A stretch of DNA of 64,000 nucleotides from Chiloscyllium plagiosum (Eukaryota). A program made the translations under genes and the position numbers. The notes under the pieces were generated by a model. The model ran no database searches, was not told the DNA's origin, and saw only the letters and a program-made list of their open reading frames with translations. The stretch spans positions 7,467,428 to 7,531,427 of the forward strand of contig NC_057754.1 in NCBI RefSeq assembly GCF_004010195.1, read 5' to 3'. This document shows positions 14,451 through 61,333 of this stretch, one piece after another; the first letter of the stretch is position 1; every line of letters begins with the position of its first letter.

Positions 14451-15357
14451 NNNNNNNNNNNNNNNNNNNNNNNNNNNNNNNNNNNNNNNNNNNNNNNNNN
14501 NNNNNNNNNNNNNNNNNNNNNNNNNNNNNNNNNNNNNNNNNNNNNNNNNNNNNNNNNNNNNNNNNNNNNNNNNNNNNNNNNNNNNNNNNNNNNNNNNNNN
14601 NNNNNNNNNNNNNNNNNNNNNNNNNNNNNNNNNNNNNNNNNNNNNNNNNNNNNNNNNNNNNNNNNNNNNNNNNNNNNNNNNNNNNNNNNNNNNNNNNNNN
14701 NNNNNNNNNNNNNNNNNNNNNNNNNNNNNNNNNNNNNNNNNNNNNNNNNNNNNNNNNNNNNNNNNNNNNNNNNNNNNNNNNNNNNNNNNNNNNNNNNNNN
14801 NNNNNNNNNNNNNNNNNNNNNNNNNNNNNNNNNNNNNNNNNNNNNNNNNNNNNNNNNNNNNNNNNNNNNNNNNNNNNNNNNNNNNNNNNNNNNNNNNNNN
14901 NNNNNNNNNNNNNNNNNNNNNNNNNNNNNNNNNNNNNNNNNNNNNNNNNNNNNNNNNNNNNNNNNNNNNNNNNNNNNNNNNNNNNNNNNNNNNNNNNNNN
15001 NNNNNNNNNNNNNNNNNNNNNNNNNNNNNNNNNNNNNNNNNNNNNNNNNNNNNNNNNNNNNNNNNNNNNNNNNNNNNNNNNNNNNNNNNNNNNNNNNNNN
15101 NNNNNNNNNNNNNNNNNNNNNNNNNNNNNNNNNNNNNNNNNNNNNNNNNNNNNNNNNNNNNNNNNNNNNNNNNNNNNNNNNNNNNNNNNNNNNNNNNNNN
15201 NNNNNNNNNNNNNNNNNNNNNNNNNNNNNNNNNNNNNNNNNNNNNNNNNNNNNNNNNNNNNNNNNNNNNNNNNNNNNNNNNNNNNNNNNNNNNNNNNNNN
15301 NNNNNNNNNNNNNNNNNNNNNNNNNNNNNNNNNNNNNNNNNNNNNNNNNNNNNNNNN
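14451..15357. other. Assembly gap (907 N) flanked by G-rich repeats in YIF1A intron 1
   Basis: Run of N; flanks contain G-rich short repeats such as gagggtgaatgtgagggag. Confidence 0.99.
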
Positions 15358-25999: not shown

Positions 26000-28102
26000 G
26001 GCCAGGACTTGCTCGAGGAGGAGTTTATCGAAGATATCCGCAATAGTTTTCTTGAACAGTATGTAATGGAACTGACGAGGGAGCAGCCATCATAGATCTG
26101 GTCCTGTAATGAGGCTGGAGTAATTTAATGATGTCATAGTTAGGGATCCTCTTCGAAGGAGAGGTTGAATTTAGAATAGAGTGTGAAGATAGAATCCAAT
26201 ACCAGGGTCCTGTGCTTAAACAAAGATTACAGTAGGGTGAGGGAGGAGTTAGCTAAAGTAGGCTGAAAGCAAAGACTTCATGGTGGGACAATTGACTAAC
26301 AGTGGAGGACTGTCAAAGCAGCAAAAGTATATACCTGTGAAAAGGAAGGACTGAAGGAAAAGGGGTAATCTGCCATGGGTGTCCAAGGAAATAAGGGAGG
26401 CTATCACATTGAAAGAAAAGGCATACAAAGTGGCCAAGATCTCCCGGAAATTACAAGATTGGGAAAGATTTAAAGGTCAACAGAAAGCCACAAAAAAAGC
26501 TGTAAAGAAAAGTAAGATACATTATGAGAATAAACTAGCTCAGAATATACAGACAGATAGCAAATATTTATAAAAATATATAAAATGAAAGAGCAGCTAA
26601 GTAAATATTGGTCCTTTTAGAGGATAAGAAGGGGGATTTAGTAATGGGATATTACTAATAGGCTAGGGCACTGAACAGGTATTTGTGTTGGTCCTCACAG
26701 TGGAAGACCAGTCTCCTGGCCCTGATGAAATGCATTTAGGGTACTAAAAGAGATGGTGAAAGAAATAGCAAATACACTTATACTCTCCCAAAATTCACTG
26801 GATCCTGGGGCAGTTTCAACAAATTGAAAAACAGCAAATATGATGCCACTGTTTTTAAAAGAAAGAAAATAGAAAAAAGATGAATTGTAGACTGGTTAAC
26901 TTAGCTTCTGTAGTGGGGAAATGCTTGAGTCTATTATCAAGAAAGAAATAGCAAGGCATCTAGTTAAAAATTGTCCCATTGGGCAGATGCAGCATGAGTT
27001 CATGAAGGGCAGATCATGCTTAACCAATCTACTAGAATTCTATGAAGACATTACAAGCATGGTGGACAACGGGGACCCAGTAGATGTGGTGTATCTAGAT
27101 TTCCAAAAGGCATTTGACAAGGTGCTACACAAAAGGCTGCCGCATAAGATTAAGATGCATGGTATTATGGGCAATGTATTAGCATGGATAGAGGATTGGT
27201 TAACAAATGGAAAGCAAAGAGTGGGGATAAGTGAGTGTTTTTCTGGTTGACAGTCAGTGACTAGAGACATAGTTTAAGTGAATGGGCAAAGGTCTTGCAG
27301 ATGGACTACAATGTTAATAAATGTGAAGTCATCCATTTCGGTAGGAATAATAGTAAAAAGGATGATTACTTGGATGGTTAAAAAAAAGTTGCAGCATGCT
27401 GCTGTGCAGAGAGACCTGGGTGTCCTTGTGCATGAATCACAGAAGGTTGGTCTGAGGGTGCAATGAGTAATTTAAGAAGGCAAATGGAATTTCGTCCTTC
27501 ATTGCTAAAGGGATTGAATTTAAGAGTAGGGAGGTTATGTTGCAGCTGTACAAGGTGCACACCTGGAGTACTGCGTGCAGCTTTGATCACCTTACTTGAT
27601 AAAGGATGTACTAGCACCAGAAGGAGTCCAGAGGATGTTCACTAGGTTGATTCTGGGGTTGAGAGGGTTGGCTTAAGAGGGGAGTTGAGTTATATTCATT
27701 GGAATTTAGAAGAATGGGAGGGATCTTTCAGAAACATAAAATAATGAAGGGAATAGATAGTACAGAAGTAGAGATGATGTTTCCACTGGTGGGTAAAGCT
27801 AGGTCAAGAGGGCATAGCCTCAAAATTAGGGGAAGCAGATTTAGGATTGAATTGAAAAGAACTTCACCCAGAGGTTTGTAAATCTATTGAATTCCTTGCC
27901 CAGTGAAGTATTTGAGGCTTCCTCAATCAATGTTTTTAAAGCTAAAATAATTTTTTGGACTGTAATGGAATTAAGGGTTACAGTGAGAGGGTGGGTAAGT
28001 GGAGCTGAGGCCATGATAAGATCAGCCATGATCTTATTGAATGGCAGAGCAGGCTGGAGGAACTGGATGGCCTACTCCTCCTCCTACTCCTAGTTCTTAT
28101 GT
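26000..28102 (+). mobile_element. CR1 LINE relic with internal deletions
   Basis: QHEFMKGRSCLTNLLEFYED, VDVVYLDFQKAFDKV and RDLGVLVH motifs. Confidence 0.9.
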
Positions 28103-28772: not shown

Positions 28773-29049
28773 TCACTAACAGGTCTTGCAGATGGACTAC
28801 AATGTTAATAAATGTGAAGTCTAACAGGAGGCTTACCATTTGTTTAGACATGTGTAGAGTTATTTAATTAAGGTCCAGTGTTTAGAACAGTTTAACGAGA
28901 GAAGTGCACAACATAGGCTACACAGCAAGTATTGTTAATAAGACAGGCAGCAAAGCGACATTTGTAGTTTAACCATTGCATCCACTTGAAGTTTGAACTG
29001 AAAGCTCTAGGACACAGACTCTCATTGAAATCTTTCCTTCTCATCTTAG

Positions 29050-35790: not shown

Positions 35791-36039
35791 CTAGTTCTTC
35801 TTACTATTTAGTGGTTTCTGTTAAACATTTATATGGGCTTATTACAGAAACCCACGGCCACAAATGGTGTTTGGATCTGTGGCAATTGTGTACGATAGGA
35901 GTTACAGAGAAAGGATTTGATTCATTGGGTGAATGGGATAGGGCTTGGGTCTGTTGTGTTCGTGCACAATGGGGTTGAATGTCATATTTTGTAGTGATGT
36001 GTTTTTCTGGTAATAAGACTCTGTGTATTTGTGTTTCAG

Positions 36040-36195
36040 GTTTTCTCCTGAGGTGCTGGGAATGTGTGCCAGTACTGCTCTGGTATGGATCATTATTGAA
36101 GTTTTAGCCCTTGTCCTCACACTGTACTTGATATCAGTACATACAGACCTCACTACGTTTGATCTTATTGCCTACAGTGGATATAAGTATGTGGG
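36040..36195 (+). CDS. YIF1A: YIF1A coding exon 6 (not in the ORF track on +)
   Basis: tttcag|G TTT...GTG GG|gtaagt; [24 protein letters not shown]...[20 protein letters not shown]1A-type rather than YIF1B-type residues. Confidence 0.97.
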
Positions 36196-36349
36196 GTAAG
36201 TGCTGGCGAGGGCCTGTTCCATTGTGTTATTGTACACATTGCGATGCTGGACCATTATAATGGGGTCAGTGTAATAGCATCTTGTAAGGTGAGGTATAAT
36301 GAGGGAAATCATGCCTGGCATATTTTGAGTAGGTAACAAATAGAAGGAA

Positions 36350-37515
36350 AGAAGTGAGTTTAATATATTTGGATTTGAGAAGGCACCACACATTAGGCTA
36401 CTTAGAGATTTGAGCCCACGGTGGTGGAGACAATATTAGTATGGGTAGAAGGTTCGCTAACTAATTAAACAGCATATATTGGGGTCATTTTCAGCATGGT
36501 GACCAGTGGCATACAGGGATCAGTTCTGGTGCCACCATTCATTATAATATATTCTAATGACATGGTGAGGAAGGTGAATGCATTGTCACCAACTTTGCAG
36601 ATGACACAAAAATAGGTACAAAAAGGAAGTACTGAGGATGACACCCATACAGTCTGTTGGGGGAGGTGGACAGAGTAAGTCAGTGAACAAAAACTTGCCA
36701 GACTAAATGTAATGTGGGAAAGTTTGAGGTGACAGGAAGTAAAAAAAAAAAAGGAGCTGAGTATTATTCAGATGGAGAAAGACTGCAGAAAGCCATAGCA
36801 CAGCAGCACTTTGGAGCCATCATTCATATATCACAAAAAGCTAGCATCCAGGTTCAGTGGGAAACATAAAAAGCAAATGGAATGTTGGCTTCTATTTCAA
36901 AGGGAATGGAGGATAGTAACAAGGAAGCCTTGCTAAAATTATACATGACACTAGTTAGACCACATTTGGATTACCGTAATCAATGTTGGGCAGTTATCTA
37001 AAGAAGGATACACTGGCATTAGGTGTAGTCTAAGGTTCAGTAGGTTGATCCCAGGTATGGAAGGATTATCTTGTGAGGAGAGATTGATTAGGTTGGGCCT
37101 GTATTCATTGGTGTTTAGAAGATTTGAGAGGCAACCATATTGAAAAGTACAAGACTCTTAGGGGGTTTGTCAGAGTAGATATGGAGAGATTCTTTCCCTT
37201 TGTGGGACAATCCATATCTAGATGGCATTATCTCACAAAAGAAGTCATCCAGTTAGAGGAGAAATGGAGGAATTTCTTATTTTGAGGCTTATGAAACTGA
37301 AATTCTTTACTACAGAAAGCAGGCAAGGATGGGTTGTTACGTATATTCAAGACTGAGCTAGATTTTTAATCAATGAAAGAATTGAGGGTGGGGGGGGGGG
37401 GGGAGGCAAGAGTGTGCATTTGAGGTTAATCCTATCAACAATGATCTCATTGAATGCTAGAGCAGACTTGATGAGCTGCGTGGCCTATTTCTGCATACAC
37501 GTCTTTATAGTCTTG
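36350..37515 (+). mobile_element. Old CR1 relic
   Basis: cagggatcagttctgg (QGSVL), tttgcagatgacacaaaaatagg (FADDTK) and a CR1 3' UTR. Confidence 0.75.
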
Positions 37516-38584
37516 TAGGCTGCCAAGGAGTATAATATCACTTTACAAGTATACTCTAGGATGGTATAATGTCACAATAATTGGTGCACCCAATGATCTT
37601 CAAGAGTGTGTTCATAGAGGGAAATGTTACATGCTGCTGCTGCTGGGTCACTGCTGCGGCCATCACCACAGCAATGAAGAAGCACCTCTCTCACTTGCAC
37701 TTGGCCACCTCAGCTCCCTTCAATAAAAGATAACAGCATCCACAGATTCAAACCTTCGCACTTTCAAGTGGGATCAACACAGAGATAGCACATCAGTCTG
37801 AGACCGTAGTGAATGTGTAATTGCAGTTCTTGTGTCAACCCACAGCAGGCAATGAACACTTGGCCCAGAGCAGTGTATGAGAACGAGACGCAAATATGGT
37901 TTGTAATCTAATCATGAGAGCAAAGCTCGAGTAATTTATTGCCATAATCTGCAGATTCGGGTGCAGCCTTGAATCTCGTGTTTCCTCAAACAAACTGTTT
38001 CAACAAATATCTTGGTTCTGTGTCATGTATCTGGAGGTTGGCTAGATTTTCCATTGGATTCTCAGTGGATTTTCCAAAAACCTGAGTGGTAAAACTACCA
38101 CATGCCAAGGTGTAGAGACTGAAGGATTGGGATAGAGGAAGATTCTGGGTCAAAGGCATGCTCCAGTTGTAAGGTGTAAGAGATGATGAAGAGATGCCAC
38201 GTAGTAACCATCTCTGTAGGAAATACCCTGTATTTAGAAGCTGTCCCACGTTCCCCAGGGTGATGACACTAAGTGCCACCATGAGAGAGGAAGAGAAATT
38301 ACGGATTTTTGAAGAGGAGTAATATGGATTGTGAGCAGATCAGAGTGGACAGATCCAACCAAGGAGCTATTGCCAGCACTGACAATGGGCTAAATGTAAC
38401 TTGTACAATTGTACTGTGGAAGCAGGAATACAGAACCCTTTTATGTGCTACAAAGGCCCAAGTTCAACTACCAGCTGCTGTAACCTGGTGAGTTGTAATT
38501 GGATAAAGAATAAGTTTGTGTGACTCCGTGTTGCCCCTGAGGTCTCTTTCCCAGTGATTTCTCTTTATTGGGATACCAGTACAG

Positions 38585-38640
38585 GATGATAATCACAATT
38601 CTAGCCAGCTTGGACGTCCTGTTCCATCGTGTTCTTCCTA
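38585..38640 (+). pseudogene. Degenerate duplicate of YIF1A exon 7 (pseudo-exon), part of a duplication 38582-38804 of 39463-39706
   Basis: cag|GATGATAATCACAATTCTAGCC...TTCTTCCTA|gtaagtgactcc matches exon 7 with a 38-nt internal deletion; about 150 nt of downstream intron is also duplicated. Confidence 0.9.
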
Positions 38641-38869
38641 GTAAGTGACTCCTTCGTGCTCTCTCGCCTCAGGAAATAGAAAAAAAATTCATAGTTCCTT
38701 TTTGTTTTTATTATTGTTATCATGAGGGGACCCATCCTCCCTGTCCCCTCATGATAACAATAATGAAATGGCTAACTAATCATAGAAATGAAATGTTCTT
38801 CAATGCTGTGTAGTTAAGTGAAGATTGTATTACAAAGGTGCCAAATATCCTCTACTTTGCAGGATATTG

Positions 38870-39306
38870 CAGAGTGATTGGTGTTCGATAAAGTCTCTTA
38901 ACAAGGGTGAGTTAGGATGCTATGGTTTTGAATCCCTCTGCAGAGATCTGAATGCACAATCTAGGCTGGTAGGTTTACACATTCCTGAGAGGATCTGCAC
39001 TGCCAAAGGTGCTATCTTTTAAATGAGATGTTAAAACTTGGTACCATTTATCCTCAAATGGATGTAAAAAAGCCCATGACTGCAATTGTAAGGAAGGGGT
39101 CGTGGGTGGTATTCTCCCTATTCTCCTGAGGCCAATATTTATCCTTCAATTGACATTACAAAAGCAGGTTATTTAATGCTGCTTGCTGTGCCACAGGATG
39201 GCTTCTGTGTTTCCTACGTTAGTGATTACTTAAAATACTTTGCCCGTAAAATGCTTTGAGATATCCTACAGTTGTGGAAGGTGCGGTGGAAATGCAGGCC
39301 TTTCTT
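38870..39306 (+). mobile_element. Deu-domain SINE (SacSINE/AmnSINE-like)
   Basis: ggtgctatcttttaaatgagatgttaaa, ggccaatatttatccttcaa and gcttgctgtg segments with an aatgcaggcctttctt tail. Confidence 0.6.
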
Positions 39307-39465
39307 GAATTGGCAGTAATTCACACTCTCAATCTCTCCTCTCTTGTTTTGATGAGAATACAGGAACCTAACCTCTTGATTTCAGATTGTCTCACTCTGA
39401 TTCCTCATTTCTGGTCAATGTTTATCATTGGTAAAGTGGTCTGTTCCTATATCTCTCTCCCTCAG

Positions 39466-39559
39466 GATGATAATCACGATTCTAGCCGGCTTATTGTTTG
39501 GGCGAGATGGTTACTATGTGGCGTTGGCTTGGACATCCTGTGCCATCATGTTCTTCCTA
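39466..39559 (+). CDS. YIF1A: YIF1A coding exon 7
   Basis: ctctctccctcag|G ATG...CTA|gtaagt; [31 protein letters not shown]. Confidence 0.96.
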
Positions 39560-39904
39560 GTAAGTGACTCCTTTGTCCTCTCTTGCCTCTCAGGAAATAG
39601 AAAAAAAAATTCACAGTTCCTTTTGTCTTACCCCCATCCTCCCTGTCCCCTCATGATAACAATAATTAAATGGCTAACTAATCATAGAAATGAAATGTTC
39701 TTCAATTAGCCTTCAGGCTACTTATTAAAATCTTGCACTGAAACACACTGCAACTTGTCCAGTCCAGCATGCTTATAACCAAGTTGTTTCTGGATTTCAG
39801 AAGTTTCCAGATTATAAAGTGGCACTAGAATACTAACTACAAGTGAGTCCACTAGGATGTGTTGTCTTTATTTACCTGAAACATCAAACTGCAGGAATAA
39901 CTGA

Positions 39905-40235
39905 GGAGGCGATTGCCTCATGGTATTATCACAAGACTATTAATACAGAGACCCAGACAGTATTCAAGGGAACTGGATTCAAATGGCAGATTGTCGACTT
40001 TGAGTTCCATTATACAAAAAATCTGGAATTGAGAGTCTAATGATGATCATTGTCAATTGTCAGAAAAACACATCTGGTTCACTAATGTTCTTTTGGGACT
40101 GCCATCCTTATCTGGTCTGGCCCACATGGTCAGTCTCGCAGCAATGTAGTTGATTCTTAAACTGCCCTCTGGGTAATTAGGGAATGGCAATAAAATGCTG
40201 ACCTAGCCAGCTACACCCTCATCGTCTGAGTGAAT
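39905..40235 (+). mobile_element. Unclassified SINE-like repeat (related copy at about 22650-22920)
   Basis: Shared segments aaaatctggaat, cattgtcaattg and catctggttcact; tail caataaa.tgctg.ccta.ccag. Confidence 0.45.
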
Positions 40236-40479
40236 TAGAGTAACTGGAATGTTCTTTTCTATCTTTCTTGTATCTGCTCCAAAAGTACTGTACTAAAATG
40301 CTGCTTGGGCCTTAATGAAAGGGTGACTGGACATATTACAATGTATATCTAATTCCCTTTCAAAAATTGCTATTGAATCTTTTTCTACCACCCTTTTCTG
40401 ATAGTACATTCAAGATCACTGAGCAAATTTAAGCAAAATTTCCGTATCTCTTCTAACACTTCATTGAGCAGGTGAACTG

Positions 40480-41210
40480 CCAGTGGTAGAGATGTTTGGG
40501 AATCAACAAGTCACAAATTAATAATTCCTCCCAAGCAGGCTGTACATGCCACACTTCACACCTCAAATCCCCTACTGTTTCTTAAAGGACCAGTTATTGG
40601 AAGCCATTATAATGTACTTTAAGCAACTGGAAAAGCGAGCCATTTCATATTGCTACTGTGCTTTGGCAACTATTTTCCATGACCAGGATGTTGTGGTCAA
40701 GTCAAAAACACTCTTTCTGCTCTAGAAATACGTAATGTGATGTATGGAATTTCAGACATATTAGGAAACACAACTCTGGCGTTTTGTGGTGACTGCACTC
40801 AACTAGGCCATGCTTTGAGCACTCCGGACCTAATGTCTGATGTTAGATGTAGTTCTGTGATTGGACAGCACTTGCTAGATAATCCTAAGTGTATTAGAAT
40901 TAAGCTAACAACAACTTAATATTTCTTTCAGGCTCTCCATGTAGCTTATTTACACTTGCTAGAAGCTACACACATTCGTGTGCAGGGACCTGTTCTCTAC
41001 AGGCACAATGAACACATCCAGAATTTGCACTTTTTTTTTTGACTTAAACAAGAGCATGGTGGACACCTGTTCCCTTGTGCACAGGTGACCAATTGGCATC
41101 CTTTCCTTATGCAATATGAATTGTTCCCTTTGAAATTTTGCATTCTTGCGATTCTATGCTGATTAGTGCAAGGTAAAAAACTTCAACAGCACATCTTTTT
41201 CATTCAGTGA
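40480..41210 (+). mobile_element. Highly degenerate Penelope-like fragment
   Basis: SSVIGQHLLDNPKC and LHLLEATHIRVQGPVL-like remnants of a GIY-YIG C-terminus. Confidence 0.5.
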
Positions 41211-41384
41211 TATAATAATGTGTTCGCACTGATGAGTTTTCAATTTACTCTGTCATTTTGTACATACCAGCATCTCTCCATGCTTGTTGAACTGCTCTCT
41301 CTGAAGACTGCTGGTACCACATCGCATGCAGTCTCACTCTCACTCACTCTTTCTCTTTCCCATCCCACCTTGCCCCCTCCACAG

Positions 41385-41537
41385 GTCCGTTCCTTGAGAA
41401 TGAAAGTCCTGTCCTCCACCTCCGATGGAGTTTCCAGCCATAGCTCCAGGAACCAACTACGGATGTATGTCACCCTGGCTATTGCTGCATTTCAGCCTCT
41501 CATCATTTACTGGCTGACTGTTCACCTGATTCGGTGA
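41385..41537 (+). CDS. YIF1A: YIF1A coding exon 8 (last, with stop)
   Basis: Long pyrimidine tract then cag|GTC; VRSLRMKVL...QLRMYVTLAIAAFQPLIIYWLTVHLIR*, the YIF1 C-terminus. Confidence 0.97.
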   Translation, partial: VRSLRMKVLSSTSDGVSSHSSRNQLRMYVTLAIAAFQPLIIYWLTVHLIR

Positions 41538-43011
41538 GGGATACTGAGGTGGTAGTCTAGGGTTTGTGGGGGGGAGGGGTGGGGTAGAGTGCCAAGTATT
41601 GTGGGTTTTGTCATTCTATCCCAATGTATCATTGCACAATATTAAGCTGGTCCCTTCCTCAGAAGATGCTAGCAGTTTATAAAGGAGTGCCAAAAATGTT
41701 CCACTTGTTTACTTTGAAACCAGAATTCTACAGCCTCAGCCAGAGCTGTATGTGGTACATAATTCCAGACAGGTGTACCGTCTCTAATGTTGTCTGTGAA
41801 TGAAGTATGAGTTTGCTGTGGTGAGGACTTTTATTGTACAGGGTGTCTGTCCTGGTGTACAGGAAAGTTTGAGAGAGTTGCACTCACATCATGAGTTATT
41901 GCTCATTTAGACCATGGCTGTGAAAACATGAAAGACATGAGAACAAGAATCAAAGCACTCTACTCTAAATCTTTACTCCATCTGTATCGTGCACTCCCCT
42001 CAAAAGGTTGTGATTAAAAGCCCCACTCCAGGATACATAACCGAGGCTGGTATTTCAATGCTACACTGACATGCTGAAGCAATCCATTAAGCCAAGGCTG
42101 CGTCTGCCCCAGATATTCCACACAGCCTTACAATCCAAGCCTCAATAAAAGAAATGACAAAGATGCTGCAGCATATTGTGCCCATGCTGTTGTTGCAGCA
42201 CTCGGTGATACTGTTTATAAAACTGACATCCCAGCCTAATTGAGTTGTACAGTACCAGTAATTCTTCCAGTTATCAGTTTGTGCATTCTCTCTCATCTTC
42301 CACTCCAACACCATCCTTCCCTGCTTCCCTGACCCTCCTGTTGGAGGAGGAAGTGCCTTTAAAAAAAAAAAGTCCTACACTACCACAATACTATTGATTA
42401 ACACTTCGGTATAATTTTTAATAAAATCGCCAGTATGTCAAGAGAGATGACTTGGTGCAACTTCCCTAATATATTGTGAAATTTTAGTTTTATGTTGAAG
42501 CTGGGAGCCAGCCATCACCCCAGATAGCCACTCCTGCATCTGCTATTTGAGAGTGTTTCCTGCCTTTGAGAGGCATGGCTGTTAGTGGCTTAGAGAAATG
42601 GCTTAGTATGCAGGAGAGAGGATAAAACCGACCTGGACACCTTCCTAGAGCTATTCTAGGCAGCTACAGTGTATTAGAGTCTTTGGCGCAGCTCAGCTGT
42701 TACTTCCCAGCCGTCAGCAGTGGCAATAAAACTGAATGTCCCTCCCTGACAAGCAGGCTGTAATAGAACAGAGACTCCTGAACCTTTCCTGCAGACTACC
42801 ACCATAACTGTTTTTTCAGTAAATGGGCATTAATCCCATAAGTACAGCAGATGACAGACATGGAACTTTGCTTTGTTTTAATCAACCTGTGGCTTCTTTG
42901 ACCATTTGCTGGTTTGAGGATGAATGGAGGACTTCTCCTGCCAGTTGATCTTTGCAGTGGTTCTCAACGTAATGTGTTTTAAATCATTGCCCTGCTGCTG
43001 ACTCTGTAAAT

Positions 43012-43021
43012 AATAAATAAA
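43012..43021 (+). terminator. Probable distal polyadenylation signal of YIF1A
   Basis: Overlapping AATAAATAAA followed by a GT/T-rich tract, at the end of a repeat-free stretch of about 1.5 kb after the stop. Other AATAAA at 42144, 42420 and 42725. Confidence 0.55.
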
Positions 43022-43339
43022 ATGCATCATGTTTTAAACCTGTTTGTTGTCATACTCTTCATTACTTCCAATGTTGATTGCAAGTTGGGTTGCCAACTCC
43101 AAATCTTTCATGGCTGTTCACTGGTTGGTCCCTGTCTCGAGGAAAACAGAGCCACACTGGTTCCCAGTGCCTAATAGCCCACTGGCCATGAGTGGGAGGG
43201 AAAATTAATAACATTTAATAAATCATTTGTGGACATCAGTGAGATACAATGGCCATTAAGGATGCTGCATTTTCTTTTACTCCAACTTTCGCATTTGTGA
43301 TCCATCCCACATTGTCACTTGGGGAAGTGGTGATGAGCG

Positions 43340-43530
43340 AACACCTTGAGCCAGTGCAGTGGACAGCTGGAACTGACACCCAGAAGCGGCAGAGACAAAC
43401 CACTATAAATGCCAGAGGGAACATCTCAGAAGCACTTCACAGGAGGCTCCCACACACTGAGGATGTCACCTAGACAGGGGACGAAACGTCTGCAACACAA
43501 ATTCCCAGTTCGGTGAACAGAACCACGACA
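43340..43530 (+). mobile_element. Penelope terminal-repeat fragment with intact hammerhead core
   Basis: CTGAGGA-T-GTC-acctagacaggg-GAC-GAAACGTC at 43457-43490. Confidence 0.65.
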
Positions 43531-44232: not shown

Positions 44233-44550
44233 TTGTTCTTGGCGCACTTTCCTCCCAGTGTTGGCTTGCTCTTAGCGCGCTTTCCTCCTGATCTCGGCTT
44301 GTTCTTAGCGCGCTTTCCTCCCGATCTTGGCTTGTTCTTAGCGCGCTTTCCTCCTGATCTCGGCTTGTTCTTAGCGCGCTTTCCTCCTGATCTCGGCTTG
44401 TTCTTAGCGCGCTTTCCTCTCGATCTCGGTTTGTTCTTAGCGCGCTTTCCTCCTGATCTTGGCTTGTTCTTAGCACGCTTTCTTCTGCATCTCGGCTTGT
44501 TCTTAGCGCACTTTCCTCCCAGTCTCAGCTTGTTCTTGGCGCGCTTTCCT
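44233..44550. repeat. 33-bp minisatellite, about 9.5 copies
   Basis: Unit TTGTTCTTAGCGCGCTTTCCTCCTGATCTCGGC. Confidence 0.95.
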
Positions 44551-53840: not shown

Positions 53841-55210
53841 CCAGTCTTTTCTTGGGAAAAGAGTACATGGCAGTGGTATCATTTCCCTGTCCTGTCTAAT
53901 TCTAACTCTGGGGCATGACCATTTGTTTTAACCCTTTTCTCCTTTGTTCTGTCAATATGTCTGGCCTCCAGATGGATTAATTCAACTCCTTTTCAAAAGC
54001 TGCGTTCTTGTTCCAAATCCTGCCGAAGATTATTTAAACTTTTATTTTCCCCCTATCATGGGAGCTGGGGAAGATTCCATATCCATCATTATTTAGTGAC
54101 ACTGCCCACTATGTATCCATGTTGAACAAGAACAATCTGATGCCTGCCACAACTTTCCAAGCTGGCAGACAGTGAGTTCATTCTCTCAGTGAAATAGCAT
54201 TGGCTATTCACAGGGCTTGTAAGTCTCATTGAAGTCTTCAAGGTACTAACAGGAAAAGGCAGGGTTAATAAAGATAAACTATGCCCACTGTTTGGTGATT
54301 CTAGAAATTAGGACCACACTGTTCAGGAGAGATGCTAGGAAACACTTGTAAACATAAGGGATGTTAGATGTTTGGAACTCTTTTCCACAAATGGTATAGA
54401 GTCATGCAGCATAGAAACAGATCCTTCGGCTCAACCAGTCCATGCCGGCCATAATTCCAAACTTAAATAGTCACACCTGCCTGCGCTTGGCCCATATCCC
54501 TCCAAATGTTTCTTATTTATGTACTGAAACAAATATCTTTTAAATATTGTAACTAGTTGGTGCTCAATCAGTTGTTAGTTTTAAATCTGAGATGGGTTTT
54601 TTTTGTTAACCAAAGGAATTAAAGAATATAGGTCAAAGGCAAGTACATGGAGTTAGACCACAGATCAGCCATACTCTCACTGAATGGTAGAACAGACTCA
54701 AGGGACTGAATGGCCTACTCCTATTCTTACGTTTCTATGTTCCTATATGAAATAGAGAGTGCTGATTGATTGATTGAGTGCTTTCAATATATACATAGAG
54801 ACCACTGGGTTAGTAGTTAGGAGGTTGACATATTGTAATGGTACATTTTGTAAATAAAGAAATTCACACTCAAGAAAGAGGATGTGTATCTAATTTCATG
54901 TTTCACCATCTGGCTTGGGATCTCTTTATCATGAGGCGATAACATGTTACCCTCCACTGGGGTCAAGGTGTTCAAAGTCTGATGCGGGTTGCTGAGCATC
55001 GGAGTTTCATGATTGTGTTGTTGAACTTTATCTGTATAAAAATCTCAGGTGGTTGCTAATCGATAACTGCAGGTTACATATTAGCCTGATATTGCTAATC
55101 AGATTGAAGCCTTCTATTGGTACAAGATTGCCAGATCTGCATATGAGCAGAGGGCAGGCTACTTCGGGGATTTGAGCTGGTTATTGTTTTGCTGAGAGCC
55201 AAGGCTGAGG

Positions 55211-55410
55211 ATGAAGAACTGGCACATCGCTTTGATCACCGGAATCACCGGAGCTGTTGCCCTTGCCGTCGGACTCCTGATCGGCCACTATGCCATCCTG
55301 AAGCATGGCAACGCAGAACAGGGGCATGACTCCATTGGGGACATTGACGAGTCCCTCATCCAGCACTTCATGAGCGAGATTGACAACAAGCGGATCGAGG
55401 ACAACTTGAG
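55211..55410 (+). CDS. NAALADL1: NAALADL1 coding exon 1 (type II signal-anchor; M28 peptidase family)
   Basis: MKNWHIALITGITGAVALAVGLLIGHYAI...DNKRIEDNLR matches the NAALADL1 pattern (short cytoplasmic tail, GHFAI, RIRENLR); donor AG|gtatgg, phase 2. Confidence 0.88.
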
Positions 55411-55947
55411 GTATGGGTATGGCTGAAACTAGAGATGTGTTCAATTCTGGCCACCAGAGCTTAGGGAGGACGTCAAGGTCATGGCGAGGGTGCAGTAGAT
55501 ATTCACCTGGGATGACGACTTTCAGGGAATGTGGAGAGACTGGAAAACCTGGTATTGTTTTCTTTAGAACAGAGGAGATTAAGGGGAAGATTTAACAGCC
55601 GTGTTTGAAATCATGAAGAACTTCCTAGTGTAAATGAGGAGAAATCATTGCCAGGGACCAAGGAGGGTGGATAACCAGAGGGACACAGATTTGAGATTAT
55701 TGGCAAAAAAAAAAGCCAATATGGTTTGGCTACTCACAGAATTATTACAGTGCATACGGAGCCCATTTGACCCATCGTGTCTGCACAAGCTCATTAAGTG
55801 AAACCACTACCTGGCACCAGTCTCCTGCTCTCTCCGACACCCTTGTATATTATTTTTATCCAAGTAGTCATCCAAAGCCTTCTTGAATCCCTCCATTGAA
55901 CCGTCTCTATCACACTTCAGGGCTGTTTTGATTTACAGTTGGTTGTT

Positions 55948-60166: not shown

Positions 60167-60395
60167 TGGGGAATCATTTGGCGATCTGAAAACAGCAGCA
60201 AATACACTGACTCACAATGCCACCAGGTATCTGTGATGTAGAGGTGCTGATGTTGGACTGGGTTGGACAAAGTCAAAAATCACACAACACCAGGATGGAC
60301 TATAACCTGACAAGATATCTACTTAGTTATTGCATGTATGTATTTGATTTGATGCTCCGGGCACTCATATACTGTATTGAATTTTCCTGTCATAG

Positions 60396-60568
60396 GGAAC
60401 TGTCTGAAAAGCCACATATGGCCACAACCAAAGGGGATATTGATCTGGTCAAGTTGATGTTAGACAGATGGCAGAACAAAGAGACAGGTTTGGATGAAGC
60501 AAAGAAGGTGACGTATAATGTGTGGTTGTCCTTTCCGCAGAAGGACAAACCTAACAGTGTTACTGTAG
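60396..60568 (+). CDS. NAALADL1: NAALADL1 coding exon 2 (gene continues beyond the window)
   Basis: catag|G GAA...GTA G|gtaaga; ELSEKPHMATTKGDIDLVKLMLDRWQNKETGLDEAKKVTYNVWLSFPQKDKPNSVTV matches the PH.A and Y.V.LS.P...PN motifs; in frame with exon 1. Confidence 0.92.
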
Positions 60569-60604: not shown

Positions 60605-61333
60605 CCAGCACAGATTGGACTCAGTAAAGGTTTCCCTGCACTGTCTAGTCATGCAATTCCACAGGAATTGGATTCAGTGTAATGCTGTGTGTACACTGTC
60701 CCCGTCAAATACTCCCCAGTACAGGGTCAGCACAGGGTTAGATACAGAGTAAAGCTCCCTCTACACTGTCCCCAACAAACACTTCCCAGGACAAGGACAG
60801 CATGGGGTTAGATACAGAGTAAAACTCTCTCTACACTGTCCCCCATCAAATACTCCCAGAACAAGGACAGCACGGGGTTAGTACAGAGTAAAACTCATTC
60901 TACAATCTTCCCCATCAAACACTCCCAGGACTGGGACAGCATAGTAAAGGTTTCCCTGCACTGTCTAGTCATGCAATTCTGCACGAATTGGATTCAGTGT
61001 AAAGCTCTCTCTACACCATCAAACACTCAAAAGCACTCTCTACACTCCCAATACAGGGACAGTATGGGGTTACATAGAGAGTAAAGCTCTCAAACACTCC
61101 CAGGACAGGGATAGCATGGGGTTAGATACAGAGTACAGCTCCCTCTACACTGTCCCCCATCAAACATTCACAGGGACAGGGTCAGCATGGGGTTATATAC
61201 AGAGTAAAGCTCTCTTTACACTGTCCCCCTCAAACACTCCCCAGGGGAGGGACAGCACAGACTTATATACAGCGTAAAGCTCTCTGTACACTGTCCCCTC
61301 AAACACTCCCAGAACAGGGACAGCATGGGTTAG
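60605..61333. repeat. Tandem satellite, unit about 70 bp, about 10 degenerate copies
   Basis: Unit ggacagcacggggttagatacagagtaaagctccctctacactgtcccccatcaaacactcccaggacag. Confidence 0.9.

Follow-up and report, generated by a model that had tools for sequence, protein, structure and literature searches.

Several described systems share features with the locus reported here. Unannotated tandem exon duplicates in introns (PMC9013439) likewise consist of a homologous copy of an exon of the same gene together with part of the flanking intron. Tandem mutually exclusive exon substitutions (PMC9741552) also involve a tandem homologous exon, and the older, full-length state of the copy considered here would have been equal to its source in length and frame. 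Inclusion of a conserved cryptic poison exon (PMC11632617) places a premature stop codon before the last junction, and nonsense-mediated decay (NMD) hides such poison forms in steady-state RNA (PMC11387194).

Two further systems concern inverted sequences. In docker-selector structures one site is complementary to two duplicated sites, and the possession by one site of two duplicated partners has been proposed as the origin of competing structures (PMC6071210). In the four-point model of short-range template switching, a stretch is replaced by a nearby reverse complement and a new inverted repeat results (PMC5453318).

The locus lies in a 64,000-nt stretch of the Chiloscyllium plagiosum genome, the whole of which is referred to as the window. 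A first-pass annotation of the window, made from the sequence, had noted a shortened copy of exon 7 of YIF1A in intron 6 and had proposed it as a candidate poison or alternative exon; none of the open-access papers listed for YIF1A deals with the locus by its title.

YIF1A and its expressed exons

The host gene is YIF1A: exon 6 retrieves YIF1A proteins of sharks and rays at 92-98% identity, and in a profile search the Pfam YIF1 family is matched in order by exons 6, 7 and 8. The gene model has eight coding GT-AG exons and yields a protein of 300 residues, 298 of which are identical to isoform X1 of C. punctatum and of H. ocellatum. The YIF1A protein has been described as five-pass (PMC9437294). 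With an AATAAA at 43012 and a poly(A) site at 43038 (42 reads), the 3' UTR is about 1.5 kb long; A tails behind 42371 fall on a genomic A run. The coordinates of the relevant features are collected in Table 1.

Table 1. Features of YIF1A around the exon-7 duplicate, in window coordinates
Feature	Position	Strand	Basis
YIF1A exon 6	36040..36195	+	protein matches, Pfam, RNA contigs
Antisense match of 21 nt to the exon-7 core (39504-39524, 19/21), lying in the part lost from the copy	38194..38214	-	sequence match
Cryptic acceptor, pyrimidine run and cag; exon from 38555, 86 nt	38544..38554	+	13/17 pyrimidines against 8/17
Direct, rearranged duplicate of 39463-39706	38582..38804	+	sequence alignment; 195 letters aligned, 10 of them substituted
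Pseudoexon of 56 nt, lacking 39489-39526 (38 nt) of exon 7; weak acceptor, donor equal to the real one	38585..38640	+	run X1 contig, no difference
26-bp hairpin with 11-nt loop; left arm (38706-38731) a reverse-complement insertion	38706..38768	+	alignment, folding
Source segment: cag, exon 7 and 147 nt of intron 7	39463..39706	+	alignment with 38582-38804
YIF1A exon 7 as spliced into the mRNA, 94 nt	39466..39559	+	joints 36195>39466 and 39559>41385 in runs X1, X16 and X18
YIF1A exon 8 with its stop codon at 41535-41537, and the 3' UTR as far as the poly(A) site	41385..43038	+	42 A-tailed reads behind 43038, run X21

Other features of the window were recorded in passing. At position 36119 the window has A and all four compared runs have G; the resulting T194 occurs in the window alone, the compared shark proteins having A, and the base is either a private allele or an assembly error. 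Intron 1 contains a run of 907 Ns (14451-15357) and intron 3 an exact 41-nt direct repeat (27290-27330 and 28781-28821), which is another small local duplication. Tandem arrays at 44233-44550 and 60692-61329 comprise a 33-nt unit in 9.6 copies and arrays of a 70-nt unit. Exons of NAALADL1 lie downstream of YIF1A on the same strand (55205-55411 and 60394-60567), and a whole YIF1A protein stands at the start of three Cetorhinus NAALADL1 models, by read-through or annotation fusion. An Rfam search of 36000-43500 gave no matches.

Anatomy of the duplicate

Much of what the first-pass annotation had described is borne out by the coordinates: the copy of exon 7 lies in intron 6 upstream of exon 7, at a distance of 881 nt, and it begins with cag/G and ends with CTA/gtaagt, measuring 56 nt against the 94 nt of the real exon. 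A 38-nt deletion between GGCTT repeats had also been proposed; the deletion itself is confirmed, whereas the surviving repeat reads AGCTT, matching at 4/5 letters, with a G>A at a CpG as the difference. Microhomology of 5 nt (4 nt) occurs at just 0.8% (1.6%) of the 5100 possible 38-nt deletions in the region, and a microhomology-guided deletion is therefore a fair reading. Beyond the earlier description, the duplicate extends over 147 nt of intron 7, has lost 2 nt and carries an inverted 26-nt insertion (38706-38731), and two neighbouring features are new as well: a better cryptic AG (exon start 38555) and an antisense piece of exon 7 at 38194-38214.

Upstream of the copy, MAFFT aligned a further stretch weakly; with no local match to support it, this alignment was rejected as homology. 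A metagenome pattern scan returned one match, confined to the 23 letters, which was taken as chance.

Splice sites of the copy

Upstream of the duplicated exon, three letters (cag) alone were copied, and the pyrimidine tract and branch region were left out. The weaker acceptor expected from this omission is indeed found: by simple pyrimidine and AG-free counts, used here rather than a trained splice model, the copy scores below all seven real acceptors, with 8/17 pyrimidines and 3 AG-free nt against 12-15/17 and 20-51 nt. Of the 110 YAG sites in intron 6, 59 are as pyrimidine-rich as the copied acceptor, which is thus no better than the median. The donor of the copy is identical to the real exon-7 donor. 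Lying 30 nt upstream of the copied acceptor, the cryptic site is stronger, falls within the pyrimidine range of the real acceptors and leads to the same downstream stop.

At a divergence of 2.6-5.1%, chance alone leaves all eight splice-site letters unchanged in 66-81% of cases, and the intact splice sites of the copy are therefore uninformative on selection. The step from intact sites to a candidate poison or alternative exon consequently finds no support, the acceptor being close to the median YAG; moreover, the 56-nt form is not shared with a related shark, and the contigs of three runs list normal junctions only.

Predicted reading-frame outcomes

NMD is triggered by a stop lying more than 50-55 nt before the last junction. 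In the frame computation, a transcript of exons 6-copy-7-8 reads AGA TGA and stops after 238 aa, 89 nt before the last junction, just as had been predicted; with exon 7 retained, each of the acceptors 38542, 38555, 38580, 38585 and 38605 places the stop 89-177 nt before that junction. Judged by these computed frames, rare inclusion of the copy would give an NMD-type transcript. The other predicted outcome, a frameshifted stop in the last exon when the copy replaces exon 7, is reproduced too: the stop falls 59 nt into exon 8, and the translated product, of 256 aa, loses the hydrophobic segments 236-254 and 278-299.

Mutually exclusive duplicated exons share a frame and retain key residues, and the copy does neither. 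Its 56 nt against 94 nt shift the frame, 13 codons are lost or shifted, and the changes A245S and M247V alter residues that are conserved in 124/127 (A245) and 126/127 (M247) of the proteins compared.

Use of the copy in RNA

Contigs or reads of four of the 24 listed runs (X1, X16, X18 and X21) were compared with the window. In run X1, from organism A, a contig covering 37884-38648 shows no differences across the flank, acceptor, deletion junction and donor; its depth of 9.8 is like that of the surrounding intron, and it continues unbroken through the acceptor and donor of the copy. The intron contigs of this run break at the real exons (39494, 39532, 41414) and not at the ends of the copy. 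Given that its spliced joints stand at depths of 189 and 124 over introns at 10-23, we read run X1 as RNA with pre-mRNA, despite an automatic guess of DNA.

The joints 36195>39466 and 39559>41385 have depths of 124-452 in runs X1, X16 and X18, and in run X16, which has zero depth over the copy, a single contig spans exons 6-7-8. In the raw single-cell run X21, of which about 2 in 100 reads were sampled, there were 388 matching reads, one of them across exons 6-7, and the depth was 0 over 37701-39450, a coverage too sparse to weigh either way. Among the 15 listed of the 56 joints in the contigs of runs X1, X16 and X18 there is no junction to or from the copy and no joint skipping exon 7, and the tail that would derive from the deleted copy is in none of 134 proteins compared. 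Since contigs drop rare variants and steady-state RNA under-counts unproductive forms, the RNA data exclude major use of the copy only; low-level or tissue-restricted inclusion may occur compatibly with them.

Divergence and history

Between copy and source, 10 of 195 letters are different (5.1%, CI 2.5-9.2); four intron contigs of organism C depart from the window at 144 of 4333 positions (3.3%; p 0.16 for the two compared). The exon part of the copy (5/56) is not slower than the intron part (5/136). Measured against its source, the copy is not kept better than a neutral rate would leave it. As to related sharks, in which the first-pass annotation had suggested checking conservation, the 56-nt form is found neither in organism C nor in the C. 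punctatum model.

Run X18, from organism C, has two informative contigs. One, covering 37527-38605, carries the flank and the acceptor and then 16 letters that misfit the deletion junction; the other, at depth 7 and covering 39505-39703, contains the middle of the exon, passes the donor unspliced and, judged by its starting point, leaves the mRNA path at 39535, a position where the window copy differs too. Read from their coordinates and depths, these contigs suggest an older, full-length copy. In C. punctatum, the RefSeq isoform X2 has a whole exon 7 with T245, against A in isoform X1 of the same species, and then reads an intron-7-like tail of 93 nt that is without the hairpin insertion; the distance from donor to TGA is 114 in the copy, 97 in the source and 93 in this tail. 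We infer that the two isoforms represent two genomic templates. The tail of isoform X2 is 4 nt shorter than the window source and the run X18 contig is not, so that the organism of run X18 and C. punctatum are probably different species. In Scyliorhinus canicula, the tail of YIF1A isoform X2 also changes directly after exon 7, to unrelated sequence.

As organism C and C. punctatum both point to a full-length copy, the deletion and the hairpin should be later than the duplication. The 38-nt deletion that defines the 56-nt "poison exon" would then be later decay, as this comparison in part bears out. At least two lineages have retained the copy.

Inverted sequences in and near the copy

The hairpin behind the donor of the copy is very stable (z -8.2, with 0 of 200 shuffles as stable), and the insertion forming its left arm reverse-complements a stretch close by and is missing in the ancestral state, as expected of a template switch. 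Because the source of the arm was duplicated, the arm has a second partner, being complementary also to 39645-39670 beyond exon 7 (-35.5 kcal/mol); this far pairing was rejected, as the local hairpin wins (0.998 vs 1e-8). The contigs of run X1 leave a hole at 38649-38819, centred on 38734 where the hairpin is centred on 38737. The depths around it are explained by the two flanking run X1 contigs alone, and no contig of any compared run spans the interval. The hole would fit structure-caused dropout at the hairpin, but a hole as such proves nothing, and the insertion itself is known from the window sequence alone.

The antisense piece upstream of the copy matches the exon-7 core so well that its score was reached in 1 of 1000 simulated introns and in none of 23 other window blocks, in a test chosen after the match had been seen. 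Both mismatches are synonymous in the exon frame and G.U-compatible, allowing 21/21 pairs. Its duplex with exon 7 reaches -35.4 kcal/mol, with a pairing probability of 0.985 in a fold of 38100-39760, and the best duplex, at -47.1, is stronger than those of 42 other blocks (-28 to -40) and of five other YIF1A exons. When a full-length copy is modelled, the piece pairs with the copy before the real exon has been made (0.985) and with the real exon at equilibrium; the outcome is model-dependent, since with both partners present the far one is picked. One site complementary to two duplicated sites is accordingly found in silico twice, in the hairpin arm and, in the modelled state, in the antisense piece. 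The piece lies within an inverted repeat of its own (38190-38215, 7 bp, -6.8 kcal/mol), and part of it may owe its orientation or shape to another local template switch.

Origin and fate of the copy

Taken together, we consider it likely that the copy is a dead-on-arrival tandem exon duplicate, now decaying and most likely silent. In a shark ancestor, about 245 nt (cag, exon 7 and the start of intron 7) would have been copied into intron 6, 881 nt upstream, in an event that, as its anatomy records, left out the pyrimidine tract and the branch region. In the main mRNA the spliceosome passes over the copy, and exon 6 is spliced directly to the real exon 7; presumably minor forms are spliced likewise. 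A frame-breaking duplicate of 94 nt would have been tolerated because, with its acceptor tract missing, it was silent from birth. Released from selection, it would have gained substitutions, the microhomology-bounded 38-nt deletion, the 2-nt deletion and the template-switch hairpin, the larger of these changes coming after the split from a related shark, as the relatives in part confirm. Any occasional inclusion, for which the AG at 38555 is a likelier entry point than that at 38585, would lead to a stop and to removal by NMD as noise. Against a silent copy stand its donor, identical to the real one, with a usable cryptic acceptor 30 nt upstream; the apparent use of the copy by a RefSeq isoform of C. 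punctatum; the persistence of the copy in at least two lineages; and the bluntness of the RNA test, in which contigs drop rare variants, 15 of 56 joints are listed and one raw read crosses exons 6-7.

A regulated poison exon, included together with exon 7 under some condition and lowering YIF1A by NMD, is improbable. All five acceptors tried give an NMD-type stop, the donor is a consensus one, and conserved cryptic poison exons are described as under-seen in ordinary RNA-seq (PMC11632617); however, most random exon lengths give an out-of-frame outcome by default, conservation is not above neutral, exon length differs between lineages, the copied acceptor is weak, and no supporting joint is listed.

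Very improbable, in our judgement, is an alternative or terminal exon encoding a short protein, whether the copy replaces exon 7 (256 aa) or the transcript ends in the copied intron as in C. punctatum isoform X2 (280 aa). That RefSeq isoform exists, the 6-copy-8 stop falls in the last exon, and the hairpin arm is complementary to a site beyond exon 7; yet the product would lack two hydrophobic segments, the local hairpin outcompetes the far pairing, the full-length copy in run X18 stands at intron-level depth, and 43038 is the sole poly(A) site among the loose ends listed. Isoform X2 could also arise from exon 6-7 reads placed on the near-identical copy.

It is highly doubtful that the antisense piece helped to silence a full-length ancestral copy and, with the real exon 7 now its sole partner, may tune exon-7 inclusion. 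The modelled duplex, with its 21/21 pairs, and the presence of one site with two duplication-made partners, as in the model of PMC6071210, speak in its favour, but a 1.3-kb equilibrium fold is weak evidence, good pairing follows by construction for any templated inverted piece, the target is within the exon itself whereas docker-selector genes have it in the flanking intron, and exon 7 is plainly included, with no skip among the listed joints. We hold equally doubtful the model-based extension that the duplication event also laid down this antisense silencer, with co-transcriptional pairing keeping the copy out of the mRNA in sharks that have it at full length and, in this lineage, where the copy has lost precisely that target, being redirected to exon 7.

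That the copy is an assembly artefact is scarcely credible, for although the window has a 907-N gap, differs at base 36119 from all four compared runs and has no contig of those runs over 38649-38819, run X1 matches 37884-38648 with 0 differences, the deletion junction included, and run X18 has the flank and acceptor.

Significance and comparison with known systems

A dead duplicate matters little in itself, being a tidy example of a frame-breaking exon copy that survives through a missing acceptor tract. It carries a warning, in that such copies can seed false annotated isoforms, of which C. punctatum isoform X2 may be one. Should the antisense piece or the copy alter splicing, a natural series would be available in sister sharks, some with a full-length and some with a deleted copy, on which the origin of competing RNA structures and alternative exons from duplications could be tested; an antisense silencer, if real, would amount to a switch between competing structures observed at its very origin, its state differing between sister species.

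Among the described systems, the exons of PMC9741552 are ancient, expressed and conservative, whereas the YIF1A copy is young, has lost 38 nt and is altered at near-invariant residues. Unlike the poison exons of PMC11632617, it is not conserved above neutral and is without read support in the listed joints. Docker-selector structures (PMC6071210) differ in that the partner found here either sits in the core of the exon or loses to a local hairpin. With the four-point model (PMC5453318) there is no essential difference, other than that the arm here has a second partner. The duplicates of PMC9013439 differ from the present one, whose acceptor tract was not copied, whose frame is shifted and which is known from its sequence; the copy is nevertheless filed with them, as a tandem exon duplicate of an already known class that is expressed barely or not at all.
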